Assembly (NCBI RefSeq): GCF_000021865.1
Contig: NC_014034.1
Span: forward strand, 2,880,001-2,912,000
Source of the DNA: Rhodobacter capsulatus SB 1003
GTDB lineage: Bacteria; Pseudomonadota; Alphaproteobacteria; Rhodobacterales; Rhodobacteraceae
Reading direction: 5' to 3'
Length of the DNA stretch: 32,000 nucleotides
Shown: positions 2,850 through 32,000 of the stretch, piece by piece
How the letters are laid out: each line of letters begins with the position of its first letter
Numbering within the stretch: the first letter of the stretch is position 1
Notes under the pieces: generated by a model
Database searches by the model: none
What the model was told of the DNA's origin: nothing
Seen by the model: the letters and a program-made list of their open reading frames with translations, nothing else
Made by a program: the position numbers and the translations under genes

Positions 2850-2905
2850 CCGTTCGTCGTTTCTTCGTCGTTTCCTTGCGCGGCCGTGCGCCTGCGGGCC
2901 CGGTC

Positions 2906-6213: not shown

Positions 6214-7340
6214 GCCCGGTCCTCCGCCGCCGTCAGGGGCGGTGCCTTGCGCCGCCGCCCGGCCCAGGACAGCGCCAGCGCCACCCCCGCAAGCCCGGCC
6301 AGCGCGGGCATGTAATGCAGCGCCCACAGCGCCGGATCGGCGCGGGTCATCGAGGTGGCGACATTCGACAGCGACTGCAGCCCGATCAGCGCCAGCACCG
6401 CCAGCCCGATCTGCCGCCACAGCCCCAGCCGCGAAAACCCGCCCAGCATCATCGCCGCCGCCGCGATCAGCGCCGCCACCGGCGCCATCAGGGGCTGCGC
6501 CAGCCGGTCGTTCAGCTCCAGATGCGCCGCCGCCACCGTCGATCCGGTCGCGGCCAGCAGCTCCGGCCCCGGCGCGATCAGATCGCGGCTGGGCACTTCC
6601 TCCCAATCGATGCGCCCGCGCAGGCCGGTGCCGATCGCACCGCCCAGATCATAGGTGAAATCGGAAAACCGCGTCAGCGCCAGCGACCCATCCGAGGGCC
6701 GCAGCGTCTGCGCCGTGCCGTCGAACATCACCAGCTTCGGCCCGGCCTCCGAGGGCACGATCAGCGCCTTTTCCGCGGTATAGATCGTCTCGGCTCTCTG
6801 GCCGCGGGCATCATAAAGAAAGATGTCCAGAAGCTCGCCCAGATCGGAAATCTCGCGGATATAGACGGTGATGCCCGCGGTGGGGGTCTGGAAGCTGCCC
6901 TCGGTCAGAAAGCGCGCGGTGACATCTTGCGACACCTGCGCCTGCCGCTCGGCCAGCCTTGCGCGCGAGGCGGGGACCAGCTCATGCACGAGGGCGAGCA
7001 TCAGCGCCGCGACGATCAGCCCGAAAACGGCGACCGGCCGCGCCAGCCGCCACGGGCTTGCCCCCGCCGATTGCATCACCACCAGTTCGGATTCGCCCGA
7101 AAGCCGGTTGATCGCGTAAAGCACGGCGGCAAAGGCCGCCACCGGCAGCACCAGCGAAATCACCTTGGGCAGGGTCAGCGCGGTGAATTCCAGCACCACC
7201 CAGGCGGTCTGGCCGTCACCGATCAGCTTGTCGAACAGCAGCACCGCCCGGTTCACCCAATAGACCGAGACCAGCACCAGCGCGAAAAATCCGAAAATCG
7301 CCATCAGCTGGGACAGGAGATATCGGTCCAGGCGTTTCAA
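6210..7340 (-). CDS. lptF: LPS export ABC transporter permease LptF
   Basis: 376-aa ORF beginning MKRLDRYLLSQLMAIFGFFALVLVSVYWVNRAV, a typical LptF/YjgP N-terminus. It is followed by lptG and is divergent from pepA-holC, as in E. coli. Confidence 0.88.
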   Translation of the reverse strand: MKRLDRYLLSQLMAIFGFFALVLVSVYWVNRAVLLFDKLIGDGQTAWVVLEFTALTLPKVISLVLPVAAFAAVLYAINRLSGESELVVMQSAGASPWRLARPVAVFGLIVAALMLALVHELVPASRARLAERQAQVSQDVTARFLTEGSFQTPTAGITVYIREISDLGELLDIFLYDARGQRAETIYTAEKALIVPSEAGPKLVMFDGTAQTLRPSDGSLALTRFSDFTYDLGGAIGTGLRGRIDWEEVPSRDLIAPGPELLAATGSTVAAAHLELNDRLAQPLMAPVAALIAAAAMMLGGFSRLGLWRQIGLAVLALIGLQSLSNVATSMTRADPALWALHYMPALAGLAGVALALSWAGRRRKAPPLTAAEDRA

Positions 7341-7505
7341 GGTCGGATCTCTCCCGCGGGGTTTGCCCTTCTCTAGCGCGGGATCACAGCCGGGAAAAGC
7401 CCGAAGACCCGGGGTCGCGCAGCTTCCCGCCCATCATCGCGCGGCTATACAATCGCAGTGGCGCCGCATAGGCTTGCGCCGAACCAACCAGCCGCAGGGA
7501 CTGCC

Positions 7506-8972
7506 ATGATCCACCCCGTCGCCCTTCGTTTCACCGCCTCCGACGCCGAGGCCCTTGCCCCCCGCGAAGGCCGTCTGGCGCTGATCGTGCCGCCCGAGGG
7601 CAAGCTGGGCCAGTTGGGGCGCAAGCTTGACCGGCTGACGCGGGGCGCGGTGACGCGGGCGCTGGCCTCCGAGGGCTGGGGCAAGCTGGCGGCGGGTGAT
7701 TCGCTCGATCTCGGCTTTCCGGGCGGGCTGGCCTGCGAGACGCTGGCGCTGGTCAAGCTGGACCGCCGCGCCAGCGTGGCCGAGGCCCGCAAGGCAGGCG
7801 CAACCGTCGCCAAGGGGCTGGGGGAAAAAGGCGCGCTGGTGATCGCCGAGGCGCATCCGCGGGCGGCCGACATTTCCTTTGGCCTCGCGCTGCGGGCCTA
7901 TCGGTTCGACTACCTGAGCGAGCCGAAAAAGCCCTTCGGCCCGGTCGAGATGATGGTCTCCGCGCCTGAAACCGTCGCCGCCGAGGCCGCGCCGCATGCC
8001 GCGCTGGCCGAAGGCGTGTTTTTCACCCGCGATCTGGTGAACGAACCGGCAAACATCCTGACCACCGACGATTTCGCCGCCCGGCTGGCGGCGATGCATG
8101 AACTGGGCCTCGAGGTCGAGATCCTGGACGAGGACGAGCTGGAAAAACTCGGCTTCCGCGCGCTGCTGGCGGTGGGGCAAGGCTCGGAAAGCCCGTCGAA
8201 GGTCGTGGTGATGCGCTGGCAGGGCGGCGAGCCCGATGCCGCGCCCTTGGCGCTGGTCGGCAAGGGGGTCTGCTTCGACAGCGGCGGGATTTCGATCAAG
8301 CCCGCGGCGGGCATGGAAGAAATGACTATGGACATGGGCGGCGCGGCCGTGGTGGCGGGCGTCATGCGCACGCTCGCCCTGCGCAAGGCGCGCGCCAATG
8401 TCGTGGGTCTGGTCGGTCTCGTGGAAAACATGCCCGACGGGCGGGCGCAGCGTCCGGGCGATATCGTCAAAAGCCTGAAAGGCGACACGATCGAGGTGGT
8501 CAACACCGATGCCGAGGGGCGGATGGTTCTGGCCGATGTGCTGTGGTATGCGCAGGAGCGCTTCGCCCCCGCCGCGGTGATCGATCTGGCGACGCTGACG
8601 GGCGCGATCATCGTGGCGCTTGGCCATGATCATGCGGGCATTTTCAGCAATGACGACAAGCTTTCGGGCGATCTTCTGAGCGCCGCGAAATCCGAGGGCG
8701 AAGGTGCCTGGCCGATGCCGCTCACCCCCGGCTATGATCCGCTGATCAAGTCGCGGCTGGCCGATATCAAGAACTCCGGCGGGCGCTGGGGCGGCGCGAT
8801 CACCGCGGCGGCGTTTCTGAAGCGCTTCATCAAGCCCGATGTGCCCTGGTGCCATATCGACATCGCGGGCGTCGCCCTGCCGCCGGGCGAAAGTGCGCTG
8901 GCGCCCAAGGGCGCGACCGGCTGGGGGGTGATGACGCTTGACCGGCTGATCCGCACCCGGTTCGAGGCCTGA
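7506..8972 (+). CDS. pepA: Leucyl aminopeptidase (M17 family) PepA
   Basis: ORF 7458..8972 trimmed to the ATG at 7506 (MIHPVALRF...), preceded by the SD-like AGGGA. It carries the M17 catalytic-domain motifs VGKGVCFDSGGISIKP and VNTDAEGRMVLAD. Followed by holC. Confidence 0.9.
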   Translation: MIHPVALRFTASDAEALAPREGRLALIVPPEGKLGQLGRKLDRLTRGAVTRALASEGWGKLAAGDSLDLGFPGGLACETLALVKLDRRASVAEARKAGATVAKGLGEKGALVIAEAHPRAADISFGLALRAYRFDYLSEPKKPFGPVEMMVSAPETVAAEAAPHAALAEGVFFTRDLVNEPANILTTDDFAARLAAMHELGLEVEILDEDELEKLGFRALLAVGQGSESPSKVVVMRWQGGEPDAAPLALVGKGVCFDSGGISIKPAAGMEEMTMDMGGAAVVAGVMRTLALRKARANVVGLVGLVENMPDGRAQRPGDIVKSLKGDTIEVVNTDAEGRMVLADVLWYAQERFAPAAVIDLATLTGAIIVALGHDHAGIFSNDDKLSGDLLSAAKSEGEGAWPMPLTPGYDPLIKSRLADIKNSGGRWGGAITAAAFLKRFIKPDVPWCHIDIAGVALPPGESALAPKGATGWGVMTLDRLIRTRFEA

Positions 8973-18916: not shown

Positions 18917-19108
18917 TTTGCCGGTCCGGCCCGATGACCGGCGGGCGGCGTCCCGTCGCCCGCGGGCGATCCGCCGGAATACCAGCCCCACCGCCGCGGC
19001 CCAAAGCCCGGAGATCAGCGCCACCTCCAGATTCGACAGCGCCCCGTCGGTCCCGCGCAACAGGGCACAGACCCCGGAGCCGATCAACAGGGCCTTGAGG
19101 ATCTCCAT
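18905..19108 (-). CDS. Small hypothetical membrane protein (67 aa)
   Basis: Has two hydrophobic segments and high GC3. Its ATG lies 11 nt after the DUF4139 stop. The SD is weak, so coding status is uncertain. Confidence 0.4.
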   Translation of the reverse strand: MEILKALLIGSGVCALLRGTDGALSNLEVALISGLWAAAVGLVFRRIARGRRDAARRSSGRTGKEKT

Positions 19109-19119
19109 AAGCCTGGGGC

Positions 19120-20724
19120 TTACTGCAGCACCTGATCGGCGGGCCAGCGCATCTTCGTGTCAAGCCGGATCGCCTGCGTCGCCCCGGCCGCCAGATCGAA
19201 CTCCCAGGCCAGAACGCCGCGCATGTCGTCGTAATCGGTCGTGGTCGCGGGCGGCGTCGCGGCATGGGTGATCTGCAGATCCTCCTGTTCGGCATAGGGC
19301 ACGCGGTCGATCACCCGCAGCGCCCAGGGCTTGCCGGTCAGGTTCTCCACCGTGATTTCGGCGGTCTCGGTCCGTTCGTTCGATTTCGTGATCAGGCCGC
19401 GGTCGCCCTCGTTCGTCTGCGGGATCACCCGCTTCAGCCGCAGCCCGTCGATCGCGCCAAAGCCCAGCCGCAGCCTGTCGCCCGCCGCGATCAGCGGCAG
19501 ATCCGCCGCCCCCACCACCGCGCCATCAAGCCAGAGCACCGCCGGGCCGGGCAGGATCGGCTCTGCCCCCGCGGTCCGCCCCTCGACGACCCGATAGGCG
19601 GTCTCGTCGAACATCGGCACCGCCTCGGCCAGCAGCTTGACCGGCGTCTCGATCCGATCCAGCTTCAGGCGCAGGTTTTCCACCCCGTCGCGGATATCGA
19701 CCGCGCCCGGATAGGTGTAAGTCACGGTTTCACCTTGCAATTCCATCGCCATCCGGCCCGCCGCCGGGGCCGGGGCGGCCTCTGCCACCGGGACGGCATA
19801 GCTGTCCATCGCCGCTTTCGGCGCCGCCATCCCCACCATCGGCGGCTCGGCCGGGCCGATGCGGCGCAGATCCGACCACATCTGCGACGGGTCGGTGCGC
19901 TCCGAGGGCCGCGCCGTGGACAGCACCAGCGCCACCCCGCGCCAATCCTCGCCCGAGGCCTGATGCACCGAGACGAACCGATCCAGCGCGAGGCTGCCCG
20001 CCGCGCTGTCCAGCCGCGCATCGTAACTCGGCGCCCAGCCCGCCTCGGCCACAAAGGTCGTCACCGTGACCCTGCCCGCGCCCGAGACCGTCAGCAGCAG
20101 CGAATCGCTGTCCTTTTTCGGGTTTTGCAGCGCGTCGAGCGCCTGTTTCGCCCGCGCCACCGCCTCTTTCGCCGGTTTCAGCGCCGCTTCCGCCGCGCGC
20201 ACCTCGGCCCGGGCGGCGATCCGCGCCTGTTCGGCCGCAAACACCCCCTCGGAGACCGTCCGCGCCAGCGCCGTCACCTTGTCGGGCGGCGTGTTCGAGG
20301 TATCGAGCGCGGTGAAGAAATCGGCCTCGGCCTCGGCCGCGGTGATCTTGGCGCGCAGCGCGGCCAGCTTGTCCTGCTGCGCGGCCAGATCGGCCCGCGC
20401 GGCCTCGAGCGCGGCGCGGGCCGCGCTGACCTCGGCCGAGGGCGCGCGTTCGGCGGCGGGTTCGCGCGCGTCCATCAGCGTCACCGCGCCGATCTCCACC
20501 CCCTCGCCCATCACGCGCAGGCTGGCGGGATCGGTGCCGTCGGGCAGATCGGGCACCAGCACCTCGGTCACGCCCGCGGGCACGGTGACGGAACGAGTCA
20601 CCTGCGCGCCTTCGGGGAAAAGCGTGACCGTGGAAAGGGTTGCGGGAATTTCCGCGGGCGCGGCAAACAGCGCCGCGGGGGCGCAGGCAAGGCAAAGGCT
20701 GGCGAAAAGCGGCAGACGGGGCAT
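19120..20724 (-). CDS. DUF4139 / mucoidy-inhibitor MuiA-like secreted protein
   Basis: ORF trimmed to the ATG at 20724, preceded by GGGAGG (MPRLPLFASLCLACAPAALFAAPAEIP, a signal peptide). It has a long Ala-rich coiled-coil-like central region and a beta-rich C-terminal half. The family call is from memory of the TIGR02231/DUF4139 architecture. Confidence 0.6.
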   Translation of the reverse strand: MPRLPLFASLCLACAPAALFAAPAEIPATLSTVTLFPEGAQVTRSVTVPAGVTEVLVPDLPDGTDPASLRVMGEGVEIGAVTLMDAREPAAERAPSAEVSAARAALEAARADLAAQQDKLAALRAKITAAEAEADFFTALDTSNTPPDKVTALARTVSEGVFAAEQARIAARAEVRAAEAALKPAKEAVARAKQALDALQNPKKDSDSLLLTVSGAGRVTVTTFVAEAGWAPSYDARLDSAAGSLALDRFVSVHQASGEDWRGVALVLSTARPSERTDPSQMWSDLRRIGPAEPPMVGMAAPKAAMDSYAVPVAEAAPAPAAGRMAMELQGETVTYTYPGAVDIRDGVENLRLKLDRIETPVKLLAEAVPMFDETAYRVVEGRTAGAEPILPGPAVLWLDGAVVGAADLPLIAAGDRLRLGFGAIDGLRLKRVIPQTNEGDRGLITKSNERTETAEITVENLTGKPWALRVIDRVPYAEQEDLQITHAATPPATTTDYDDMRGVLAWEFDLAAGATQAIRLDTKMRWPADQVLQ

Positions 20725-20770
20725 GGGGGTCCTCCCGGGAAAAGATGCTCTCAGCGTCCCTTGGGTCGCG

Positions 20771-20806
20771 CGCAAAAGCAAGAGGGCGCCCCGGGGGGAC
20801 GCCCTC
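20771..20806 (-). terminator. Intrinsic terminator after asd
   Basis: GAGGGCG and CGCCCTC form a stem (20782-20806). On the minus strand it is followed by TTGCTTTTG. It lies about 25 nt downstream of the asd stop. Confidence 0.5.
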
Positions 20807-20829
20807 ACGTTTCAGCGGGTGGCGCGTGA

Positions 20830-21852
20830 TCAGCCTTTTTTCAGGCAGCGTTGGCCCAGCACTTCGGCGATCTGCACCGCATTCAGCGCCGCGCCCTTGC
20901 GCAGGTTGTCCGAGACGCACCACAGGTTCAGCCCGTTCTCGATCGTGCTGTCCTGCCGGATGCGCGAGATGTAGGTGGCATATTCGCCGACGCATTCGAC
21001 CGGCGTGATGTAGCCACCGGCTTCACGCTTGTCGACGACGAGCACGCCCGGGGCTTCGCGCAGGATCTCGGTCGCTTCTTCCCAGTCGAGGAATTCCTCG
21101 AACTCGATGTTCACCGCTTCCGAATGGCCGACGAAGACCGGCACGCGCACGCAGGTCGCGGTGACTTTGATCGACGGATCAAGGATCTTCTTCGTCTCGG
21201 CCACCATCTTCCATTCTTCCTTGGTCTCGCCGGAATCAAGGAAGACGTCGATATGCGGGATCACGTTGAAGGCGATCTGCTTGGGGTAAACCTTGGGCGC
21301 GACTTCCTGACCGGGGACATACATGCCCTTGGTCTGGTTCCAAAGCTCGTCCATCGCTTCCTTGCCGGTGCCCGAGACCGATTGATAGGTCGAGACCACG
21401 ACGCGCTTGATTTTCGCGCGGTCATGCAGCGGTTTCAGCGCCACCACCATCTGCGCGGTCGAGCAGTTCGGGTTCGCGATGATCATCTTGTTGGTGTAGC
21501 GCACGACGTCATCAGCGTTCACCTCGGGCACGATCAGCGGGATTTCCGGGTCGTAACGGTACAGCGAGGAGTTGTCGATCACCACGCAGCCCTGCGACGC
21601 GGCTTTCGGCGCGTAGACTTTCGTCGCGTCCGAGCCGATCGCGAAGAGCGCGATGTCCCAGCCGGTGAAATCGAACGTGTCGAGGTCCTGGGTCTTCAAA
21701 GTTCGGTCGCCAAAGCTGACTTCGGTGCCAAGCGACTTGCGCGACGCCAGCGCCGCGATTTCGTCCACCGGAAACTCGCGCTCGGCGAGAATGTTCAGCA
21801 TTTCCTTGCCAACGTTGCCCGTGGCACCGACGACGACGACCTTGTAGCCCAT
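20830..21852 (-). CDS. asd: Aspartate-semialdehyde dehydrogenase
   Basis: This is the C-terminal 340 aa of the 1248-aa track ORF. It begins MGYKVVVVGATGNVGKEMLNILAEREFP (Rossmann GxxGxxG) and contains IANPNCSTAQMVVALKPL with the active-site Cys. A strong SD (GAAGGAGG) lies 5 nt upstream of the ATG at 21852. Confidence 0.93.
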   Translation of the reverse strand: MGYKVVVVGATGNVGKEMLNILAEREFPVDEIAALASRKSLGTEVSFGDRTLKTQDLDTFDFTGWDIALFAIGSDATKVYAPKAASQGCVVIDNSSLYRYDPEIPLIVPEVNADDVVRYTNKMIIANPNCSTAQMVVALKPLHDRAKIKRVVVSTYQSVSGTGKEAMDELWNQTKGMYVPGQEVAPKVYPKQIAFNVIPHIDVFLDSGETKEEWKMVAETKKILDPSIKVTATCVRVPVFVGHSEAVNIEFEEFLDWEEATEILREAPGVLVVDKREAGGYITPVECVGEYATYISRIRQDSTIENGLNLWCVSDNLRKGAALNAVQIAEVLGQRCLKKG

Positions 21853-22149
21853 CCGGACCTCCTTCTCGAAAGAACGACCCCCGCTAGCGGAAACGGGGGG
21901 GTTTGGAAAGGGTTCGGGAAGTTTTCGGGAAAGTGGTGCGCAAAGGTCCCGGATCGGATCGGGCGGATCAGGAAACGCGACCCGCGTTTCCCCGCCCGTC
22001 GGTGCAGCGTCTGCCCCGGGGCCGATCTGCGCCAGGCGCGACAGAGGCCAGCGCCAGCCCCGGGCGGCGCGAAAGCGCCCGCCATGGGGCGGGGCGGGCG
22101 CTGGCCGGGGGCCTTTGGGCCCCCGTCTGACAAGGGGAACCGTCTCGCA

Positions 22150-22173
22150 GGGCGAAGGCGATGGCCTTCGCCC
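22150..22173 (-). terminator. Stem-loop immediately after the MFS transporter stop (possible terminator)
   Basis: A 10-bp perfect stem, GGGCGAAGGC with GCCTTCGCCC, starts 2 nt past the stop codon. There is no clear U-tract. Confidence 0.35.
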
Positions 22174-22175
22174 CC

Positions 22176-23354
22176 TCAATGGGGCCGCGCGCGCGAGAAC
22201 AGATAGACCGCCAGACCGGCCACGACCGGGATCAGGAAGAACAGGAAAAGCGCCCGATAGGCCGCCACCGGATCGCCCGCGCTTGAGGCCGCGGCAAAGA
22301 CCGGACGCGACAGGAAGAGCCCGATCCCCGCCCCGGCGATCGAGAACAGGTTCAAAAGCGTCACCCCCCGGCCCACCAGATGCGGCGGCAGGAAGGTCCG
22401 CCCATGCGCCATCAGAACCGGGAAGGAGGCGCCAAAGAACCCCACCGCGGCCAGAAGCGCCGTCGCCTGCCACAGCCCCGCATCGGGCGCGAAGGCAAGC
22501 GCCGCAAGCGCCAGACAGAGCACCAGATTGCCCGCAATCGCCACCCGCTTGTGGCTGCCAAGGATGCGGTCGGCCGGGCCATAGGCGAAATTGCCCAGCA
22601 CCATCGCCACCCCCATCGCCAGCGTGACCTTGCCGATCAGGCCCGCATCGGCGTCCTGCAGCGCGCTCAGCCAAGGTCCCGCCCAAAGCCCCCGGATCGC
22701 CGCGGCGGCAGTGTAATTGGCAAAGATCAAGGGCAGGATCAGCCAGAAGCCGGGCAGCCGCAGGATGTCGAAAACATTGCCCTTTTGGCCCTTGTGCGCG
22801 ATGCGTTCCGGGTCGCGGGTAAAGATCAGGATCGCCAGCGCCACGACTAGCGTCACCCCGGTCAGCCCCCAAAGCGTGGCCCTCCAGCCGAACGCGTCGA
22901 TCGCCGCGGCAAGCGGCGCGGCGCCTGCCAGATTGCCCAGACTGCCGACCCCGATAACCGCCGCGGCCAAAGTGCCGAAGATCGCGGGGGAAAAACTGCG
23001 CGCAAAGATGTAGTAAGATCCCATCAGAACGGGCGAGCAGCCGATGCCGATCAGCACCATCGCCAGATGGATGCCCCAGGGTCCGGTGGCCAGCGCGAAG
23101 GTCGCCGCGCCCCCGCCCCCGCCCAAGGCCAGCAGCCAGCCCACGGTCCGGCGCGGCCCGATCCGGTCGAGCGCCTCGCCCACCGGGATCTGCATCAGCG
23201 CGAAGGCCAGATACCAAAGGCCAAGCGAGACGGCCAGATCCTCGGCCGAGGCCCCCAGTTCCGTCTTCAGAACCGGCGTCAGCACCGCAAGGCAGGCACG
23301 ATAGAACTGGCTGAGCACATAGCCCGCCACAAGAAACGCAATCGACAGTCGCAT
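22176..23354 (-). CDS. MFS transporter
   Basis: ORF trimmed to the ATG at 23354, preceded by GGGGAGGG (MRLSIAFLVAGYVLSQFYRACLAVL...). About 392 aa with roughly 12 hydrophobic segments. The substrate is unknown. Confidence 0.8.
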   Translation of the reverse strand: MRLSIAFLVAGYVLSQFYRACLAVLTPVLKTELGASAEDLAVSLGLWYLAFALMQIPVGEALDRIGPRRTVGWLLALGGGGGAATFALATGPWGIHLAMVLIGIGCSPVLMGSYYIFARSFSPAIFGTLAAAVIGVGSLGNLAGAAPLAAAIDAFGWRATLWGLTGVTLVVALAILIFTRDPERIAHKGQKGNVFDILRLPGFWLILPLIFANYTAAAAIRGLWAGPWLSALQDADAGLIGKVTLAMGVAMVLGNFAYGPADRILGSHKRVAIAGNLVLCLALAALAFAPDAGLWQATALLAAVGFFGASFPVLMAHGRTFLPPHLVGRGVTLLNLFSIAGAGIGLFLSRPVFAAASSAGDPVAAYRALFLFFLIPVVAGLAVYLFSRARPH

Positions 23355-23517
23355 GATCCCTCCCCGGAGCCGGGCCAAGCTGCCTTGGGACGTGCGCAAA
23401 CACAAGGGTCTGCGACAAACCGGGGGTCTGCGGCGCGTCAAGATCGCGCCTGCTTGCTTGCGGGCGTCCTGCGGCTGCCCTAACCTCGCCTCCGTTTTCC
23501 GCACGAAGGGCCGCTCC

Positions 23518-24153
23518 ATGTTCGACTACACCGCGCTGCACTGGTCGGGCTTTCTGACCGCCGCCGTGCTTTTGAACCTGTCCCCCGGCCCGGACATGGC
23601 CTTCATCCTCGGGCAAACCCTGCGCGGCGGTCGCAAGGCGGGGTTCGCGGCGATGACGGGGGTCTGGACGGGCGCCCTCGGCCATGCGCTTTTTGCCGCC
23701 GCCGGGCTGTCGGCGCTGCTCGCCTCCTCGGCGCTGGCCTTCGCGCTGGTGAAGGCGATCGGGGCGGCCTATCTGATCTTTCTCGGCCTCAAGGCCCTGC
23801 GCGCGCCCGGGGGCAGCTTCGTCTCCGAGGCGCCCGAAGGCCTCTGCCCGGGCTGGCAGGTCTGGCGTCAGGGCGTGTTCGTGTCGCTGCTGAACCCCAA
23901 GGTCGCGATCTTTTTCCTGGCCTTCCTGCCGCAATTTGTCGTGGCCGGTGCGGGGCCGGTGTGGGCACAGCTGTTCCTGCACGGGTTTCTGGTGATCGCG
24001 GTCGCGGCGCTGATCGAGCCGCCCCTGGTCCTGATCGGCGCGACCGTGACGCGCGGATTGCGCGATCGCCCCGGGGTCGGACGCTGGCTGGACCGGGCCC
24101 TTGGCACGCTGCTGGTTGGTCTTGGGGTCAGATTGGCGCTGCAGCAGCGGTGA
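23518..24153 (+). CDS. LysE/RhtB family amino-acid exporter
   Basis: ORF trimmed to the ATG at 23518 (MFDYTALHWSGFLTAAVLLNLSPGPDMAFILGQTLRGGRKAG...). This is a typical LysE-family N-terminus, with about 211 aa and 5-6 TM segments. Confidence 0.82.
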   Translation: MFDYTALHWSGFLTAAVLLNLSPGPDMAFILGQTLRGGRKAGFAAMTGVWTGALGHALFAAAGLSALLASSALAFALVKAIGAAYLIFLGLKALRAPGGSFVSEAPEGLCPGWQVWRQGVFVSLLNPKVAIFFLAFLPQFVVAGAGPVWAQLFLHGFLVIAVAALIEPPLVLIGATVTRGLRDRPGVGRWLDRALGTLLVGLGVRLALQQR

Positions 24154-24312
24154 TCCGGCGCGGCGCGGATCCCGGGGGAACGGCGGATGCCGCCGGACCG
24201 GGCCTGCGCCGCCGCAGCGCCCCGGGCGGCAGAGCCCCTCATCTGCCTGTGGCCACCTGCCGCACAGAATTAGCTCTTGTTCTGCCCTGCCGTGCCGCAT
24301 ATACGAGCAGAC

Positions 24313-24402
24313 GGAGCGGTGGCCGAGTGGTCGAAGGCACACCCCTGCTAAGGGTGCAGGCGGGAAACCGTCTCGAGGGTTCGAATCCCTTCCGCTCCGC
24401 CA
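24313..24402 (+). tRNA. tRNA-Ser (anticodon GCU)
   Basis: GGAGCGGTGGCCGAGTGGTCGAAGGCACACCCCTGCTAAGGGTGCAGGCGGGAAACCGTCTCGAGGGTTCGAATCCCTTCCGCTCCGCCA. The acceptor stem is GGAGCGG/CCGCTCC and the anticodon loop is CUGCUAA. It has a long variable arm, the T-loop GGTTCGAATCC and an encoded CCA. Confidence 0.93.
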
Positions 24403-24428
24403 CTTGCCCCCGCGAAAGCGTTCTCCCG

Positions 24429-24452
24429 ATCCGGCTGCGGCCGGATTTTTTC
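24429..24452 (+). terminator. Intrinsic terminator of tRNA-Ser
   Basis: ATCCGGC, loop TGCG, then GCCGGAT, followed by TTTTTT. Confidence 0.75.
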
Positions 24453-24763
24453 GTTGTTTTCGAGGGTTATGCGGGAGGGGCTGAGCACCGGCGTCAGCAC
24501 CTGGAGGCCCGGAAGCGGTCTCTGAGGACTGATATTCTCCGGACCTCATGACTGCCAAGTTCCAGTACTGAGCCATTATCTAATTGATTTTATTTGAGAT
24601 TTCTGGGATCACCCTGAGCACTTCGCTTTCTGTGCCATTCGCGAGTTGGAACAGAAATCAAACATATCCGGCGCGCTCCTATGCGTTGATGCCTCGGAAT
24701 TGTGACGCCGTCAGCCGTCGGCCTTCGACGGGTTGCGCCTCAGCTCGGTCGCCAGTTAGGGTC

Positions 24764-25783
24764 CTATGGCGGCAACAGCGCCCGTTCTACTGGTGCGAGG
24801 GCATCGATCCGCGCCTTGCCGAGTTGTCGACAACCGGCAAGTTCAGTCAGAAATCGCACCCCTGCCACGCCTGCGGGGAGTGGTGGCCTGATGGCTGGGA
24901 TCACGCTCATATCGTACATCCGCAGGGAAGAGGTCGCACGGGCTAGGTCGAACGACCAGCCCAGCGCCGACTGCATATCTCGCCCGAGTGTGTCGGCCAC
25001 CACGGTGCGAAGCTTCAGTATGAGGTCGTGAAGCTCGATCCGCGCCTCGATATCGGAAACAAGCTCTGCGAGTGAGAAACCGCCTGCGGCCGGCTGAACG
25101 ACCAAAGAGGATAGAATCCCTGTAGTACCTGGTGGTGGATTTGCCTGTTCGAAAGAGACCTCATGTGCCCGGCGGTCCGTGGTGGTAGCCTTCGCGTCCA
25201 AGCGAAGGGAGCCCACGGCGAAGTCATAGCGCTCGTCTTGGTCTACGCGCCAGGCGCGGACAGCTGATGCGGGGTCAGTTGCGGCCCGGATGACGAGCAA
25301 CTCGCCAGCCAATCCGACCATGTTCTTCCTTGGCGTTTTGGCGAGCCGCTGAAAAAGGTCCACCAAGCGGTCCACAACCTCGGCAACTGCGGCCACCGTT
25401 GGATTGGGGCCGAGTGTCGCAGCGAGGAACTCCATCGTGGTGAGAAAGTATCGCTCGGCCGCACGTTCCTGAGACCTGCAAGAGACGACCGTCAGATTCT
25501 CGGTCCGGACTTCGCCGTCGCGCTCTTCAATGCGACAGGCGACGCTGAAGCGCGCCTCGATACCCGCAAGGACCAACGGCACCCGGTTTGTGGCCCCTGA
25601 GGTCCGGATCAGCAGTGCTGCGTAACCGGAGTTGTCCCGCCCCACGTAGTAGGCAGCTTCTGTTGGCGCCGCGGCGACGCTGAACGTGCCAGCCTGATCT
25701 GGCCTAGGCAGCCGTTCAAGCAGAGCGGGCAGTTGGCTGATCAATCTTGCACTTCCTGACCAGCTTGCAGTTGCACCAGCCAT
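24764..25783 (-). CDS. PD-(D/E)XK-motif protein (candidate nuclease effector)
   Basis: Last gene of the operon. It contains GLAGELLVI ... ERYDFAVGSLRLDAKAT, which fits E...D-x(10)-DxK of the restriction-endonuclease fold. The ATG at 25783 gives a 43-nt overlap with the upstream gene. An alternative TTG at 25744 has AGGAAG 7 nt upstream and overlaps the upstream stop (TTGA). Confidence 0.6.
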   Translation of the reverse strand: MAGATASWSGSARLISQLPALLERLPRPDQAGTFSVAAAPTEAAYYVGRDNSGYAALLIRTSGATNRVPLVLAGIEARFSVACRIEERDGEVRTENLTVVSCRSQERAAERYFLTTMEFLAATLGPNPTVAAVAEVVDRLVDLFQRLAKTPRKNMVGLAGELLVIRAATDPASAVRAWRVDQDERYDFAVGSLRLDAKATTTDRRAHEVSFEQANPPPGTTGILSSLVVQPAAGGFSLAELVSDIEARIELHDLILKLRTVVADTLGRDMQSALGWSFDLARATSSLRMYDMSVIPAIRPPLPAGVAGVRFLTELAGCRQLGKARIDALAPVERALLPP

Positions 25784-27987
25784 TCCTTCGCGAGATGTGG
25801 GGGAATGTGGATCGCCAGAAGCGGAACTGCGGCAGCCTCAATCGGCCCTCGATCTGTGTAAGACAGGTCGAAGCGATGGAGCTGAATGGTCGGCCGGTCA
25901 TCCATGGCAAACGCCGAGTCGCCCGGATAGTTTCGGCCTCCACCTGCTAAACGTGTCGGACCCTGCTGGAACCCCTTCTCGAGATTTCCAAACTCGGAGA
26001 CAGTACGACGAGAACCACTTGCGTTAGGTCGCATTCGATAGACAGCCACCGCAGTGTCAGCATTACGGCGGAGCGCTTCGCCAAGCGTCACAAGCATGCC
26101 AGTAAAGTGTGCAGTGTCGCGTGGATCCTCGAGTCTGTACTCTGAAAGCATGTCAATGACCGCTGTAATCGGTACTTCCCGCGCGACGAAGTGCCTTTGG
26201 CTGTCCTCGGTCGACAGATAAGTCTGAGTGTCCTCGGAAAAGCTGAACGCCTGAGCAAAGGCTTCCAGCAGATCGGCGTTCTTAGCACGAAGCTCCTCGG
26301 AGATGAGCGCACCTTTTTGCTGGGTCCACCCACCCGCACGTGTCCCTCTAAAAAAACTGTCCGACACTACGCTTCGCCGACAGGGCTGTAGGGAACTGTC
26401 GAGGACAAAACGGCGCCGCCACTTGTTTAGGCCGCCGGGCGTGGTCTCCATCAGCTTCAACTCACGCCGCATAAGGTTCTCGTGCTCCACGTACCCCTCG
26501 AAGGCCGAACGAGTGTCAGCTTCGAGCCAGATGCGACAGATCCCTAAGTACTTGCGTTTGTATCCAAAAAAGCGCGCCCTCTGTTGAACGGTGTCGGCGT
26601 TCCCTACCCCAACGCTGCGGGGCATATATGTGACTGTCAGACGGTCCACCGTAAAGCCTCGATCGACGGCTTGCCCGCCGACCAAGATCCAGCCCTCGGA
26701 GTTGCGCCAAGTGATTTCTGGCGTTCGCGGACGGCCATTTGTGTTGAATTCGATGATGGTGGTCTGCCGGAGTGCCCTAGGCATCTTGCCGAGGACATCC
26801 TCGAACGACGGGAGATGCGCGTCTGTAGTCGCTAAATGGTCGTATGAGGCGCGGAAATCCGCGACAAGTTCAATCCTGTCAGGGTCCGCTTCCTTCAAAT
26901 TAAGCACAGTTAGCCAAGCCGACTTGGCCTCGGTTACCCACTGCACGAACTGCCTGTGGTCCGCGCGCAACCGAGACGGATGGATCAGCATAGACCGACG
27001 TAGCCCGTCGCGGATCAAGCTGCCAGCGAGGCCAACAAAGAAGACCCTCAATGCCTCCAGCATGCTCTCAGGAGGATCATTGCCTTGCGCAAACTCCTGC
27101 GGGGGGATGTTCCTGATATAAGGAGAGCCGGGAGCGAAGAACTCTTGGCCCCCAACGTAGTCCGCACCAGGCTCAAGTACCTTGGGGAAATCAGGGGATA
27201 GGACGTCGGCGATGTTGATTAGAAGAGGTGCCTGCGGTGTGGCGGTGTATTGCAGGTAGGTGTGGCAGGGTAGTGCGTCCCGGAGTTCACGCAGCTTGGT
27301 GTAGGTGGGGCTCTCGCCGCCCTGCTGGGCACGCGTGTTGAGGCTGGCCTGATCGGCCTCGTCGTCAACGACAAGAACTGGTACGCGCTTGAGGTCCAGC
27401 TTACGGAGTAGCATTGTCAGGCTTTCAAGTCGCTGCCGCTGCTTCAGCACGGTCACAATGAGCGTTGGACGTTCATCATCCTCGAGTTCATCGTTCTGCC
27501 ATGCTTCGATGGCCTGCCGGATGGATTGCTCGTCGTGAGCGTCGTTGGCCTGGACGTTCTTCTGTATCTTCCACGAAGGAAGCCCTTCACCAGCGTTGAC
27601 GTTCAGATCCTTCTCGAGCCGCTCGTGCGACTGGTTGAGGAGATTTACTTTCGTCCCAGCGATAACAATGACCAACGGGAACCCGTTGTCCCGCGCAAGC
27701 CCGATGACAGTAGTGAACGACATGGTCTTGCCGCTCTGTACATTTCCAACCACCAACCCGGTTGCTGAACCATTCGGGTTACAAGGATCAACACCACGGC
27801 CAAGAATTTCGGCTGCATCCGCAATGAGCCTTGCCTGTGATGCCGCGTCGACTCCGCTTCGCCGGACTACACCGGTCGCCTCCTCTCCCTGGACGGGCAC
27901 CCACTTCATCTGTGGATTTGGCAGGGATGCAGAAAGCGGGATTGCTTGTCCCGGGTGTGCAGCTGCGGCGTCACTGTCTTGGGTCAT
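25741..27987 (-). CDS. SF2-like P-loop NTPase with Z1-type architecture
   Basis: 748 aa. Walker A is GNVQSGKT (27724-27747) and the DEAD-like Walker B is VLVVDDEADQAS (DDEAD at 27352-27366). A large C-terminal region follows. The VQSGKT...IVIAG...N-terminal pattern and the gene neighbourhood match my recollection of Z1 domain (PF10593) proteins. The ATG overlaps the upstream stop (ATGA). Confidence 0.7.
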   Translation of the reverse strand: MTQDSDAAAAHPGQAIPLSASLPNPQMKWVPVQGEEATGVVRRSGVDAASQARLIADAAEILGRGVDPCNPNGSATGLVVGNVQSGKTMSFTTVIGLARDNGFPLVIVIAGTKVNLLNQSHERLEKDLNVNAGEGLPSWKIQKNVQANDAHDEQSIRQAIEAWQNDELEDDERPTLIVTVLKQRQRLESLTMLLRKLDLKRVPVLVVDDEADQASLNTRAQQGGESPTYTKLRELRDALPCHTYLQYTATPQAPLLINIADVLSPDFPKVLEPGADYVGGQEFFAPGSPYIRNIPPQEFAQGNDPPESMLEALRVFFVGLAGSLIRDGLRRSMLIHPSRLRADHRQFVQWVTEAKSAWLTVLNLKEADPDRIELVADFRASYDHLATTDAHLPSFEDVLGKMPRALRQTTIIEFNTNGRPRTPEITWRNSEGWILVGGQAVDRGFTVDRLTVTYMPRSVGVGNADTVQQRARFFGYKRKYLGICRIWLEADTRSAFEGYVEHENLMRRELKLMETTPGGLNKWRRRFVLDSSLQPCRRSVVSDSFFRGTRAGGWTQQKGALISEELRAKNADLLEAFAQAFSFSEDTQTYLSTEDSQRHFVAREVPITAVIDMLSEYRLEDPRDTAHFTGMLVTLGEALRRNADTAVAVYRMRPNASGSRRTVSEFGNLEKGFQQGPTRLAGGGRNYPGDSAFAMDDRPTIQLHRFDLSYTDRGPIEAAAVPLLAIHIPPHLAKEWLVQLQAGQEVQD

Positions 27988-29516
27988 GCGCGTGACAAAG
28001 CCTCTCGCAGGATTTCGTTTACGTTACGCCGGATGGTGCCAGCCAATTTCACGCCAGCTCGCCGGGCCAGTTTTTCCGAAACGGCGATCGCAGAGCCGAC
28101 TCGGATCAGAGCCTCGATGTTACTGGGGTCCGTTTGTGCAAATAGAACCATGAATGGGTGAGCCATCGCGAGACGGATCTCAAGCTTCTCCGCACCACCT
28201 TCAGAGGACTGCTGATCACTCACGGTAAGCCAATCACCTTCGGCTGGGTCATCGGAAAGTTCGATGTGAATGACCCAGACTTGCCCTCGGAATTTCACTG
28301 TTAACTCGCGCGTAGCGAGCGTCGGCTGCGGCGCCAAAGGCTCCTTTTGGGTTTCGACCGGTATGGCATCAGCGACACGTTGGAGCACATCCGGAATGGA
28401 CTCTTCGATAACCTTTGTGGTCCGATCCAGCGCCTTGCTAGCGGCGGCTGCGCGGTCAGCTTTTGCCGCCCGTGCTTGGTAATTGTCGGCCTGCTTAAGA
28501 AGGGGCAGATCAGCACTGTCTAGGTGCTCTCGGAGCAGATCGAGAAAAGGCTGCTCATCATCGTCATTCCAACGAAACCCGTCCTTTGTATGGCTCACCT
28601 CGAACCCATCGAGTTCCAATTCCCCGAAGAGGCGCAGATGGCGGAAGCTTCCTGGGAGCTGAAAGATGTGGTGGGGGCGGTAACCATCCTCACCACTTCC
28701 TTGGATTAGCCTACCACGACGGAAAAGTGCAAAACCTGAACGAGCGTGACTTCCGGGGTCGCGAAGGGCCGCAAAACCCTTCACTTTCTGACCCTGTCCG
28801 AGGTCGAACGCAATTTCCTTTCTCCAGGTTCTAGGCTTACCGCCATCTTCCCGAGCATAGGGAGTAACAAGGATGTTTGGCGGTTCGTAGACGCAGGCCT
28901 CGCCGTTGAAGCGCAGTTCGAGTGTACCATTTCTAACAAAAACGCGGTATATGTCCGTCAGGTGTTCCCGGATCTTTCCGATGGTCCTTTTCACTGGAAT
29001 GTGGTGAAGGCCCTCCAGCACGATCTCTGTGTAGTGTGCGTTCGGCGCAGCAGGTTCTTCGTGGATGTCGAGTTCCTCGATTTCGTCGTTGACGATCCGT
29101 GAAATGTCGAACTTGACGGTGCGCTCGACGGGTTCACCGACGGCCTTCGTCCGAACGCGCCAATGGCTTGAGAACCAGCATGCCGCGCTTTTCATACCCA
29201 TGCCGAATTCGCTGAGGCCCGACGCATCCAACGGGACGACTGCGGGACGGAATGCTCGCGGAAACTCTGATCCAGCGATGCCTGCTGCGTTGTCCCGGAT
29301 AGTGATCCGGCCGGGCGGCGCGGAATCGATCTCGATGGAAACCCTCAATCGTTGGGAGCCGCCGTCAGCCAAGTCCAGTCGATCACGACTAGAGAGGTGG
29401 CTTTGAATGGCATTGTCAACGAACTCGGCTAGCGCGAACCATGGCTTGTAGTTCAGGTAACGCAGAACCGCTAGAACACTCACACCAGGCCGAATATCGA
29501 CTGTATTCACCGACAA
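27984..29516 (-). CDS. GHKL-superfamily (MORC/MutL-like, HATPase_c_3-type) ATPase
   Basis: 510 aa. Bergerat-fold motifs are present: N-box EFVDNA (29409-29426), G1 IRDNAAGI (DNAAG at 29280-29294) and G2 SEFGMGMKSA. The TTG start at 29516 has AAGGGGAGG 7 nt upstream. The C-terminal roughly 300 aa carry no motif I recognise. Confidence 0.75.
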   Translation of the reverse strand: MSVNTVDIRPGVSVLAVLRYLNYKPWFALAEFVDNAIQSHLSSRDRLDLADGGSQRLRVSIEIDSAPPGRITIRDNAAGIAGSEFPRAFRPAVVPLDASGLSEFGMGMKSAACWFSSHWRVRTKAVGEPVERTVKFDISRIVNDEIEELDIHEEPAAPNAHYTEIVLEGLHHIPVKRTIGKIREHLTDIYRVFVRNGTLELRFNGEACVYEPPNILVTPYAREDGGKPRTWRKEIAFDLGQGQKVKGFAALRDPGSHARSGFALFRRGRLIQGSGEDGYRPHHIFQLPGSFRHLRLFGELELDGFEVSHTKDGFRWNDDDEQPFLDLLREHLDSADLPLLKQADNYQARAAKADRAAAASKALDRTTKVIEESIPDVLQRVADAIPVETQKEPLAPQPTLATRELTVKFRGQVWVIHIELSDDPAEGDWLTVSDQQSSEGGAEKLEIRLAMAHPFMVLFAQTDPSNIEALIRVGSAIAVSEKLARRAGVKLAGTIRRNVNEILREALSRA

Positions 29517-29548
29517 ATGGCGGCCTCCCCTTAAACGAACGCAGGCGC

Positions 29549-30904
29549 TTAGGCCGCCGATACAAGTTCCCGAGTAATTTTCTCGTCCCGGACATCACTG
29601 CCATTTGGCGGCACTTGTGAACTTTGAAGGCTTTGCCCAGGAAGTAAGGCCTCTGCAACCGCAGCGATGACATCGACATTCACAGCGTTGCCAAGTGCCT
29701 TGTGCGCGGCTGCCTGGTTTTCGGGAAGATGCTTCAACTGCCCCATGCTCTGAAGCCGAGCGCATTCGCGCATAGTCATGTATCGGCGCTCCCAAGGAAT
29801 CACGGGCACCTGACTTGTTGTTAGGGCAACAAGTGATGGTGCAGCTGTCGGTCGCTTGGCTCGAATACCTGATGCCCGAAACTGGATGACTGACTGCCAA
29901 AGGTCGCGCGGTCCACCTTTCCAGTTCCACTCGAGCTTTTGAAAGCTAGGTGCGAAGTCCATGATCCTTGGAATCCAAGGATCAATTATGGCTTTGTGCC
30001 GGAGGTAGAAATCCCTGTTCTGCCGGATGAAGTTCTTCTTCCAGTCCGGAAAATGGGAAACCTGATCTCGCGCATACGAGGGAAGTGCAGCCTTCACCGC
30101 CTCGTGCTTCAAGCCCTCAAGCGAGCGCCCCAGCGCCCCCGTAAATGCGCCCATTCGATTGAGCCCGATGGCATGGGGCGTACTATCAAGGTAAGGGTAT
30201 GTTGCGCCGAACTCCATTGCCCATATTGGGAATGATGGCAGTTGCTCGTCTTTCGGCAGAGCGTCGATGAGCGATTGCCACGTTTCAAGATATTGAATGA
30301 AGCGAGGACCGAGCGGTCGAGCCTCTTTTGGTTTCTCGTCCAGGACGCTCTTGATCGTGACTTGGTCAAGTTGGTGGGTCGGCTCAGGCCATGAAAAATG
30401 CCTTAGACCTGTCCTTGATCCAACGATAATTGCGCGCTCTCGTACTTGAGGCACACCAAACATGAATGGCGAGAGCTTTTTCTTGTCGACTTCATATCCT
30501 AGCTCTTCGAGTCGCACCTTGATTTTACCCCATGTCCTCCCGCCGTCGTGCCGCAGAAGATTAGGCACGTTCTCGATCAGCAGATAGGAAGGCTTGTGCT
30601 TGTCGAGAATTTCAAGAACGTAATTGAACAAATCACCCCACTGTGGGCAGTCAAAACCAAGTTGCTCACCTGCTTTAGAAAATGGCTGACAAGGGAAGCC
30701 AGCACATAGGATGTCGTGAGGCGGCACATCATCAATCGCTTCACGGATATCTCCGTGCGGACGAATGCCAAAGTTCTTTTCGTAGAGGTCGGCAAGCCCG
30801 CTATTGAGTTCTGAAGCGAATACACAAGTGTGTCCAAGACCCTCAAGCGCCTGATGAAAACCACCCAGGCCCGCGAAGAGATCGGCGAATTTCAAGTTTC
30901 CCAT
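29549..30904 (-). CDS. DNA (cytosine-5)-methyltransferase
   Basis: All hallmark m5C motifs are present: I DLFAGLGGF, IV GFPCQPFS (catalytic Cys72, codon at 30689-30691), VI LIENVPNL, VIII QVRERAIIVG, IX RYMTMRECARLQSM and X ALGNAVNV. About 200 aa lie between motifs VIII and IX. Confidence 0.93.
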   Translation of the reverse strand: MGNLKFADLFAGLGGFHQALEGLGHTCVFASELNSGLADLYEKNFGIRPHGDIREAIDDVPPHDILCAGFPCQPFSKAGEQLGFDCPQWGDLFNYVLEILDKHKPSYLLIENVPNLLRHDGGRTWGKIKVRLEELGYEVDKKKLSPFMFGVPQVRERAIIVGSRTGLRHFSWPEPTHQLDQVTIKSVLDEKPKEARPLGPRFIQYLETWQSLIDALPKDEQLPSFPIWAMEFGATYPYLDSTPHAIGLNRMGAFTGALGRSLEGLKHEAVKAALPSYARDQVSHFPDWKKNFIRQNRDFYLRHKAIIDPWIPRIMDFAPSFQKLEWNWKGGPRDLWQSVIQFRASGIRAKRPTAAPSLVALTTSQVPVIPWERRYMTMRECARLQSMGQLKHLPENQAAAHKALGNAVNVDVIAAVAEALLPGQSLQSSQVPPNGSDVRDEKITRELVSAA

Positions 30905-30907
30905 AGC

Positions 30908-31087
30908 TTAATTGTCCAAGGGAAGAGCGAGTTGGCGCGTGGCGTGCTTTTCCAGCAAGTCTTTAACCGCGACATTCAATATGTACTGCAAGGAGAGAGG
31001 CGGGCGGTGGCCCTCAGCCATGGCGCGCAAGGCGTCGTAGTCTTCCACCTCGAGCGAGATGGACAAACGCTTCTTTGAACTAGACAT
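30908..31087 (-). CDS. Ribbon-helix-helix (CopG-like) protein, candidate controller of the operon
   Basis: 59 aa: MSSSKKRLSISLEVEDYDALRAMAEGHRPPLSLQYILNVAVKDLLEKH... It shows a strand-helix-helix pattern. Its stop lies 3 nt before the methyltransferase ATG. The rest of track ORF 30908..31684 is Arg/Gly-rich and was rejected. Confidence 0.65.
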   Translation of the reverse strand: MSSSKKRLSISLEVEDYDALRAMAEGHRPPLSLQYILNVAVKDLLEKHATRQLALPLDN

Positions 31088-31227: not shown

Positions 31228-31611
31228 TCATCCAAGTTGCTCCTGCTGTTCGAGCCATTCCATGGGGAACGGCTTCAGCGCCCGTTCCAGCGACACATCC
31301 CGCCCCTGCGTCCCGCAAACTATCGCTTCCACGATGTCGGGCGAGAGCAGTGTCAGGCGCAGGATGCGGGTCATGTAGGACTGTGCGATGCCCTCGCGCT
31401 TGGCCAGTTCGGCGATGGTGGCGTACTCGCCCGACTCCAGCAGGCGCTTCCAGCGGAACGCCCGCGCCAGCGCCTTGACCAGTGTATTGTCCGTCCGGCG
31501 TGGCGGCGATGCACCGTTCGGCAGTTGCATTTCTTTCCGCCCGCCGCGCTTCACGACGCGGAACGGTACGTGGAGCGTCACCGTCTCGGGGATCGGAGCC
31601 GCGCGGGTCAT
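31228..31611 (-). CDS. Small HTH-containing protein translationally coupled to the serine recombinase
   Basis: ORF trimmed to the ATG at 31611, which overlaps the recombinase stop (ATGA). It is 127 aa with an HTH-like segment, ATIAELAKREGIAQSYMTRILRLTLLSPDIVEAIV. The function is unknown. Confidence 0.55.
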   Translation of the reverse strand: MTRAAPIPETVTLHVPFRVVKRGGRKEMQLPNGASPPRRTDNTLVKALARAFRWKRLLESGEYATIAELAKREGIAQSYMTRILRLTLLSPDIVEAIVCGTQGRDVSLERALKPFPMEWLEQQEQLG

Positions 31612-32000
31612 GCGGCTTCCCCAATGCCCCCGGCCAGCATCTCGCGAGCCAGACCTCCGAGCCCATCGACGCGCAGTCGGACATTCAGACCATCTATGCC
31701 GATTTCGACGCGCTCGACCAGCAGCGCTACGATGCGAGCCTGTTCGGCGGGGAAGAGTTCGTCCCACAGCGGGTCGAACTTTTGCAGGGCCTCGCGGGCG
31801 TCGGTCTCTGTGATATCGGCAGCCTGCGTTCGCGCGGCTTTCCAGGTGCCCGCGACGATCTCGGGTTGGTGGAACGCGGCGCGGAGCCGGTTGATCACGG
31901 CCGCTTCGACCTCGCCTGCGGGCACGCGGCCGACCGGGCAGGATCCTGCGCCATGCTTCAGCACCGTCTGGCTGACATAGTAGCGATAGAGTCGCCCACC
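31608..32000 (-). CDS. Large serine recombinase, C-terminal part (N-terminus outside window)
   Basis: The frame is open to the window edge. It reads GGRLYRYYVSQTVLKHGAGSCPVGRVPAGEVEAAVI (recombinase zinc-ribbon pattern), then the coiled-coil tail ...FDPLWDELFPAEQARIVALLVERVEIGIDGLNVRLRVDGL. This is typical of alphaproteobacterial large serine recombinases. Confidence 0.75.
   Translation of the reverse strand, partial: GGRLYRYYVSQTVLKHGAGSCPVGRVPAGEVEAAVINRLRAAFHQPEIVAGTWKAARTQAADITETDAREALQKFDPLWDELFPAEQARIVALLVERVEIGIDGLNVRLRVDGLGGLAREMLAGGIGEAA

Follow-up and report, generated by a model that had tools for sequence, protein, structure and literature searches.

Which role does an ATPase of the GHKL superfamily play in an operon whose other genes point to the modification and restriction of DNA? 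This question is raised by a locus of Rhodobacter capsulatus SB 1003 (contig NC_014034.1, positions 2,880,001 to 2,912,000; these 32,000 nucleotides (nt) are called the window, and all of its coordinates are given in its own numbering), in which a GHKL ATPase gene (27984..29516, minus strand) lies between genes for the cytosine methyltransferase Dcm and for a protein with a Z1 domain, the latter being followed by a DUF4420 nuclease gene. A preliminary description of the sequence had recognized a MORC-like ATPase in an operon of the restriction-modification (R-M) type and had left the long C-terminal half of the protein unassigned. Our analysis of sequence, predicted structure and gene neighbourhood suggests, with a probability of roughly 70%, that the gene product is the MORC-family ATPase subunit of a cytosine-methylation-based R-M cassette of four components that depends on ATP and lies on a mobile island. 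The identity of the protein and of the cassette is highly probable, and the chances are about even that the protein acts as an ATP-gated clamp or matchmaker coupling the Z1 motor to the nuclease, by analogy with MutL and its partners MutH/Vsr and UvrD.

The gene is an uninterrupted open reading frame (ORF) of 510 amino acids (aa), and its assignment to the MORC family draws on Pfam, an AlphaFold2 model and Foldseek. Its TTG start codon (29516-29514, minus strand) stands behind the Shine-Dalgarno sequence AAGGGGAGG (29524..29532, minus strand), as had been noted before, and the spacer between them is 7 nt long. An in-frame GTG two codons past the TTG is the sole candidate for a possible alternative start nearby, and the stop codon overlaps the start of the Z1 gene in ATGA. 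A word-indexed search returned 5081 homologues of the protein, the nearest of which is 96% identical, and an exhaustive HMMER scan gave 1845 homologue clusters at 50% identity with E<=1e-3 and 682 with E<=1e-30. Judged from its sequence, the gene is genuine and subject to selection.

The N-terminal part of the protein (residues 1-195; 28932..29516, minus strand) is a GHKL, or Bergerat-type, ATP-binding domain, as delimited by Pfam, the AlphaFold2 model and conservation. Motif I reads E31-F-V-D34-N35-A (ExxDN), motif II D75-N-A-A-G79, motif III G105-M-G-M-K109 and motif IV H161xT163, so that the N-box, G1 and G2 motifs lie where the preliminary description had put them. In an alignment of 93 diverse relatives with 33-54% identity, D34, N35, D75, G79, G105, G107 and K109 are invariant, E31 is 99% conserved and T163 of motif IV is conserved as well, a degree of motif conservation that, as read from this alignment, is far beyond chance. 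The Pfam model HATPase_c_3 covers residues 23-151 (E = 2e-14; 54 bits against a cutoff of 25 bits). Histidine-kinase signalling was considered and ruled out, given the lack of a DHp domain or H-box, a HATPase_c_3 model that is not of the kinase type and the wrong gene context.

The fold predicted for the protein agrees with this assignment. An AlphaFold2 model of the full protein, built from 46 sequences (mean predicted local distance difference test score (pLDDT) 76; predicted template modelling score 0.62), consists of a GHKL domain at about residues 1-195, a beta-rich part at 199-316, a helical linker at 318-381 and an alpha/beta domain at 399-508. When this model was compared with the Protein Data Bank (PDB) by Foldseek, a check that the preliminary description had proposed, structures of the N-terminal and middle domains of TRAP1/Hsp90 came out on top (E = 5e-14 onward), and they were accompanied by the ATPase of mouse MORC3 (5ix2_B; E = 7e-12, TM-score 0.50 over 395 columns) and by the SMCHD1 ATPase module (6mw7; E = 7e-12). 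The structural matches to MORC3 and SMCHD1 share 13-17% identity with the GHKL protein. A PDB sequence search with the GHKL protein alone found no match, and a narrow family profile retrieved just a chance-level MutL match; a diverse family profile retrieved HtpG (E = 4e-4) and the N-terminal domain of MutL (E = 0.04) and no MORC chain. Likewise, Pfam applied to 46 family members at E values of up to 5 found HATPase models alone. Taken together, motifs I-IV and the modelled three-dimensional fold place the protein in the GHKL superfamily, and the Bergerat fold that had been read from the motifs is borne out by the Pfam and Foldseek matches.

In MutL, Hsp90, topoisomerases and MORCs, the GHKL domain is accompanied by an S5/transducer domain. 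The Foldseek matches assign such a domain to the first two-thirds of the C-terminal portion that had been unassigned, and an S5-like transducer domain is accordingly placed at residues 199-316 (28569..28922, minus strand), where the model is beta-rich. The preliminary description had guessed that a transducer or S5-like domain and a further domain would make up this half, and both were found, the further one being the separate alpha/beta domain at 399-508. Within the S5 domain, G261FALFRRGRLI271 agrees at all positions with the signature GhXhhpXXRhl, by which Iyer et al. define the MORC family (PMC2292703), and the motif S308HTK311DGF carries a lysine, K311, that is conserved in 98% of the 93 relatives. 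G261, L264, R269 and K311 are each at least 90% conserved. Given invariant ATP-site residues and a nearly invariant S5 lysine, the protein is predicted to be an active ATPase and no relic.

For a direct comparison with human MORC3, a sequence identical to PDB 6o1e_A was used. With hhalign, the family profile matched human MORC3 over GHKL motifs I-III only (E = 9.4e-5, probability 59%), and in the top-scoring local alignment of the S5 parts, which has one gap, GFALFRRGRLI falls on GIMMYHRNRLI and SHTKDGF on THNKQDF of MORC3 in colinear order. A short S5 peptide used as a query against the PDB found chance ankyrin matches only. The protein resembles the ATPase modules of eukaryotic MORC2/3/4 and SMCHD1 in its structural match, in GHKL motifs I-III and in its colinear S5 motifs, and differs from them in having no CW, coiled-coil or SMC-hinge domains. 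The marks of other groups were not found: ExxxH, which in the C-terminal part of S5 marks paraMORC2, occurs only at 148 and 168, in the GHKL domain; the restriction endonuclease (RE)-fold DUF4263 C-terminus of paraMORC3/GHKL-Shedu appeared neither in Pfam searches of the 46 members nor in the C-terminal model; Pfam found no paraMORC4 TIR domain in the GHKL protein or its neighbours; and the paraMORC5 motif HxH is absent throughout the GHKL protein. In addition, the Pfam domains DNA_mis_repair (S5) and MutL C-terminal gave no match in the 46 members even at E values of up to 5. With a GHKL domain, a modelled S5 domain bearing a basic residue and the S5 signature, the protein fits the MORC family as Iyer et al. 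(2008) define it and is placed within the MORC/paraMORC radiation.

The remainder of the protein consists, according to the models, of a poorly conserved helical linker (residues 318-381, with a long helix at 352-381; 28374..28565, minus strand) and an alpha/beta domain at the C-terminus, of four strands and two long helices (residues 399-508; 27993..28322, minus strand). A second model, built for residues 318-510 alone, reached a pLDDT of 71, and no nuclease-like structural match to the C-terminal model was found. This domain evolves faster than the rest: its mean identity to the window protein is 30%, against 46-49% for GHKL plus S5, and it is no longer alignable in distant relatives, yet the neighbouring genes there are unchanged. 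The idea that it is swapped along with partner genes was rejected, since C-termini that do not align still adjoin Z1 and DUF4420. By analogy with MutL and Hsp90, the domain could be a module for constitutive dimerisation or for partner binding.

The same structural results bear on another reading, in which the GHKL protein would be an Hsp90-like chaperone that assembles the Z1-nuclease complex without contacting DNA. TRAP1/Hsp90 structures are the top matches of the model, HtpG and MutL are the sole profile matches in the PDB, and the C-terminal model bears a faint likeness to the C-terminal dimerisation domain of HtpG (E of about 0.8-1 only). However, the matches to MORC3 and SMCHD1, whose targets are DNA or chromatin, are about equally good, the S5 domain bears a MORC-type signature and the Pfam model HSP90 does not match the GHKL protein. 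Furthermore, relatives of the protein (P0124, P0123, P0128, P0177, P0183, P0185, P0190, P0202 and P0215) carry N-terminal fusions to Dcm, to MTaX1 with or without SAP, to HARE-HTH or to HTH_3, the complete Dcm fusion being confined to P0124, a single cluster and possibly a read-through. These DNA-binding and DNA-modifying modules link the GHKL protein with DNA and the methylase, and we regard a pure chaperone role as very improbable.

The operon context supports the assignment as a MORC-family R-M subunit. On the minus strand, a small ORF resembling ribbon-helix-helix (RHH) proteins and the genes for Dcm, the GHKL protein, the DEAD-Z1 protein and DUF4420 follow one another in a tight operon. 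Dcm (451 aa; 29549..30904, minus strand) is a C5-cytosine DNA methyltransferase (DNA_methylase, E = 1.1e-62; TIGR00675, E = 5e-60) that retains the PCQ and ENV motifs and is the presumed protective modification subunit. The DEAD-Z1 protein (748 aa; 25741..27987, minus strand) is a helicase-like motor of superfamily 2 (SF2) (Pfam Z1, E = 1.9e-34; PADLOC Helicase_II, E = 2.2e-55) with a Walker A motif GNVQSGKT, a Walker B motif DDEAD and a motif VI DTVQQRARFFG. The DUF4420 protein (339 aa; 24764..25783, minus strand; Pfam DUF4420, E = 2.7e-22), whose family was assigned to the PD-(D/E)XK nuclease fold in 2012, has the conserved residues E161, D187 and K198 in the pattern E161...D187...D196-x-K198. 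Because their motifs are intact, the genes for Dcm, GHKL, Z1 and DUF4420 all look functional.

This arrangement is retained far beyond Rhodobacter. Synteny was sampled at 80 related loci of species representatives in GTDB, which span Alphaproteobacteria, Acidobacteriota, Chloroflexota, Planctomycetota, Poribacteria, Bacteroidota and others. A Z1 gene directly follows the GHKL gene in all 80 loci; Dcm is likewise present in every one of them, and it lies directly upstream of the GHKL gene in the same orientation in 75. DUF4420 was detected in 58. The four-gene order persists at GHKL identities of 30-45%, it is seen in IMG/VR contigs at identities as low as about 30%, and the same order (dcm, ATP-binding protein, Z1 domain-containing protein, PD-(D/E)XK motif protein) occurs on an actinobacterial plasmid of Rathayibacter. 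The R-M operon context proposed earlier therefore holds both in the window, where the gene has Dcm, Z1 and DUF4420 as neighbours on its own strand, and across the 80 loci.

An operon of this kind has been described before. Iyer, Abhiman & Aravind (2008, Biol Direct 3:8, PMC2292703) report MORC and paraMORC GHKL plus S5 ATPases in R-M operons, including a third type in which a superfamily II helicase with a Z1 domain (DThhQXuRhFG) accompanies a novel RE-fold protein with E-D-ExK residues and in which Dcm and Vsr genes are frequent. They propose that the ATPases take part in looping DNA and couple nucleases to helicases in the manner of MutL or of topoisomerases, a functional logic that agrees with the reading preferred here. 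By its sequence features, namely a Z1 helicase, an RE-fold neighbour and Dcm, the present operon is of this third type; it shares with it the GHKL plus S5 architecture, the S5 signature, the Z1 motif DTVQQRARFFG, a nuclease of the E-D-ExK type, the link to Dcm and lateral mobility. Relative to that description, nothing essential differs, the present protein having in addition a fast-evolving C-terminal alpha/beta domain. The operon type was thus already predicted by comparative genomics in 2008, and no new principle is introduced here; its interest lies in the missing biochemistry and not in any departure from the type. More recently, Miller et al. (2022, PMC9523054) described a core of Z1, PD-(D/E)XK and Dcm that is associated with MORC proteins, and regarded this core as a putative defence system. 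The statement of the preliminary description that ATP-driven clamps in a defence context are mechanistically unexplored accordingly stands only in part: the operon type was described in 2008 and again in 2022, and other defence GHKL proteins, such as VcSduA, have been mutagenised, whereas the literature yielded no biochemistry for the MORC-Z1-DUF4420 type.

Two characterized systems help to delimit the cassette. CglI, NgoAVII and BceSIV likewise combine a C5-methylase, a DEAD-Z1 SF2 motor and a separate nuclease, with ATP-dependent, translocation-driven cleavage, and in CglI/NgoAVII the DEAD-Z1 motor translocates double-stranded DNA and licenses cleavage by a PLD-B3 nuclease. The Z1 partner of the MORC protein is a motor of this type, which supports the R-M reading. 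These systems, however, have no GHKL subunit, and their nuclease is of the PLD family with a B3 recognition domain; assignment to the CglI/NgoAVII type failed because the nuclease here is a DUF4420 PD-(D/E)XK protein and a GHKL subunit is added. In VcSduA, a GHKL-Shedu (paraMORC3) protein, the GHKL ATPase at the N-terminus governs a PD-(D/E)XK nuclease, and ATPase mutants and nuclease mutants each lose defence. There, the DUF4263 nuclease is fused to the GHKL domain and needs no methylase or helicase, whereas here DUF4420 is a separate protein and the GHKL protein's C-terminal domain has no nuclease motif.

The anti-phage system MZA also pairs a GHKL ATPase (MzaB) with a Z1 protein (MzaC) in a defence operon, and this raises the alternative that the cassette confers abortive-infection or Mza-like defence, with the GHKL protein sensing infection and Dcm providing no self-protecting mark. 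Miller et al. (2022) liken cassettes of Z1, PD-(D/E)XK and Dcm to mzaABCDE (PMC9523054), and weak matches to both proteins were obtained here: the NCBIfam model of MzaB (NF041932) matched the N-terminal GHKL domain only, with 17.7 bits (E = 8.8e-4), and that of MzaC gave 84.8 bits (E = 3.6e-24). These scores are far under the NCBIfam cutoffs of 850 and 1500 bits, respectively, and the PADLOC model of MzaB found no match; by this sequence comparison, MzaB and MzaC are distant relatives only. Moreover, the window has no AIPR or sigma-factor gene and holds a complete cassette with Dcm and DUF4420, and the presence of Dcm in all 80 loci, mostly directly upstream, is the pattern of a protective methylase. 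We consider Mza-like defence improbable.

The operon is carried on a mobile island, to judge from its low G+C content (GC), its tRNA border, a serine recombinase and prophage calls by IMG/VR. At the gene for tRNA-Ser(GCT) (24313..24402, plus strand; found by ARAGORN), which forms the island boundary, GC drops from about 0.68 to about 0.55, with the operon on the low-GC side, and nucleotide homology to four related islands (L001, L002, L082 and L083) extends from the tRNA to the end of the window. The opposite island end falls outside the window. ORF fragments at 31228-31964 (minus strand) are similar to the C-terminal end of a large serine recombinase and to the helix-turn-helix (HTH) protein that follows it; in the relative L082, which is 88% identical, DUF2924 and a complete large serine recombinase (2111-3909 region of that contig) precede the operon. 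L082 is a 42-kb contig classed as viral by IMG/VR with the operon at its end, and in six IMG/VR contigs (L082-L087) the R-M cassette stands at the contig end. When direct repeats of the tRNA end, as expected of att sites, were sought in the window, only short chance repeats turned up.

If the cassette works as proposed, Dcm would mark and protect sites in the host DNA, and the MORC ATPase, the DEAD-Z1 SF2 translocase and the DUF4420 PD-(D/E)XK nuclease would form the restriction side. The MORC protein would be a constitutive dimer, possibly held together by its C-terminal domain, whose N-terminal GHKL domains would close upon ATP binding, with Lys311 of the S5 domain completing the active site. 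The closed dimer would then be a gated DNA clamp and a matchmaker like MutL; on unmethylated target DNA, the clamp would couple the Z1 motor, translocating as in CglI, to the activation of a latent nuclease, and ATP hydrolysis would reset the complex. A variant of this scheme, which we find unlikely, is that the restriction complex has no dedicated specificity subunit and that the MORC clamp bridges Dcm, serving as a reader of sequence and methylation in the manner of Type III systems, to Z1 and the nuclease, the fast-evolving C-terminal domain being the adaptor. If this were true, the cassette would be a living model of the first coupling of MORC ATPases to cytosine methylation. In eukaryotes, the ATPases MORC and SMCHD1 use ATP-driven clamping to silence methylated DNA, and their bacterial forerunners are predicted to work in cytosine-methylation R-M systems. 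With four compactly arranged genes, intact catalytic motifs and a family of 1845 clusters, the cassette is a reasonable entry point for the biochemistry of MORC R-M systems.

What the analysis shows directly are the identities of the domains, the conserved catalytic residues, the linkage of the genes and the island setting. Several points weigh against this reading of the cassette as an R-M system with a MORC clamp. No experimental or biochemical study of the MORC-Z1-DUF4420 cassette was found in the literature, and we thus infer every mechanistic step, including dimerisation, clamp action, the order of events and the choice of the subunit that would read the sequence and its methylation; nor is there a solved close relative in the PDB for the GHKL, Z1 or DUF4420 protein. 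Motif II reads DNAAG and not DxGxG, and the Asp of NxxD is replaced by Gln38, features that set the protein apart from the third type as described by Iyer et al. and that may make its ATPase kinetics depart from the textbook case. The pairwise S5 similarity to eukaryotic MORC is marginal (z = 2.8; 46 of 2000 shuffles reach the score). The Foldseek comparison of the C-terminal model with the PDB gave nothing significant (best E = 0.33), which makes the dimerisation role of this domain a guess. Finally, 22 of the 80 loci are without detectable DUF4420, which implies that the nuclease partner is not obligatory or lies elsewhere, and several of these have housekeeping genes after Z1 (for a thiamine pyrophosphate enzyme, an amidohydrolase and DUF3422). 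A search of the 22 loci with a hidden Markov model of DUF4420 turned up no diverged copies, and in four of them the contig stops before or inside the expected DUF4420 position. The partner may be dispensable, replaceable or encoded elsewhere, or such copies of the cassette may be decaying.

About a fifth of the loci, L004, L010, L011, L017, L018, L022, L040, L048, L053 and others, consist of Dcm, GHKL and Z1 without detectable DUF4420. A Vsr-type ORF follows Z1 in two DUF4420-less loci, L028 (11759-13762) and L008 (11677-12093); in the former, the Vsr match (residues 6-71) continues in one ORF into an aldehyde dehydrogenase and is probably a truncated Vsr remnant.

That Vsr-type ORFs stand in the place of DUF4420 in these two loci speaks for a methylcytosine-linked repair module, in which GHKL would act as MutL, Z1 as UvrD and the PD-(D/E)XK protein as MutH/Vsr, and which would correct T:G mismatches arising from deaminated 5-methylcytosine made by the linked Dcm. 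Iyer et al. note the parallel between MutL-MutH/Vsr-UvrD and this component set, a GHKL plus S5 ATPase with a PD-(D/E)XK nuclease, a helicase and a methylation mark, and consider it possible that repair has taken over some versions (PMC2292703). Unlike MutL, however, the present protein matches neither the MutL C-terminal nor the DNA_mis_repair model of Pfam and has no MutS partner, and a linked mismatch sensor of the MutS type is missing from the cassette. It resides on a low-GC island at a tRNA gene with a serine recombinase, predicted prophages and a plasmid harbour its relatives, and its distribution over unrelated phyla is sporadic. The characterized Z1 motors work in restriction, and many ordinary Dcm R-M systems come with a Vsr gene as well. 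We therefore judge a repair function to be quite improbable and retain the reading of the cassette as an R-M system.

The small ORF at the head of the operon (59 aa, MSSSKKRLSISLEVEDYDALRAMAE..., MSSSKKRLSISLEVEDYDALRAMAEGH...; 30908..31087, minus strand) ends 3 nt ahead of the dcm start and is kept 5' of Dcm in 11 of the 80 genomic loci and in five viral-contig loci. It had no Pfam match, and its sequence pattern makes it a candidate ribbon-helix-helix controller protein. A scan of promoters and terminators was uninformative except for the terminator of the tRNA.

A phage-like IMG/VR contig, L106, encodes at 4727-7803 Dcm followed by a 602-aa GHKL protein that is 30% identical over residues 6-352 and carries collagen triple-helix repeats in its C-terminal half. 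This contig is without Z1 or DUF4420, and a lysozyme-domain protein and an HNH endonuclease are encoded downstream. In the window itself, the high-GC host region at 19000-24500 contains very long spurious ORFs on both strands. A 1248-aa ORF (20830-24576, minus strand) is real in its last approximately 346 codons only, which encode aspartate-semialdehyde dehydrogenase (20830-21870), and the other real genes before the tRNA encode a transporter of the major facilitator superfamily (22176-23519, minus strand) and a LysE exporter (23353-24153, plus strand).

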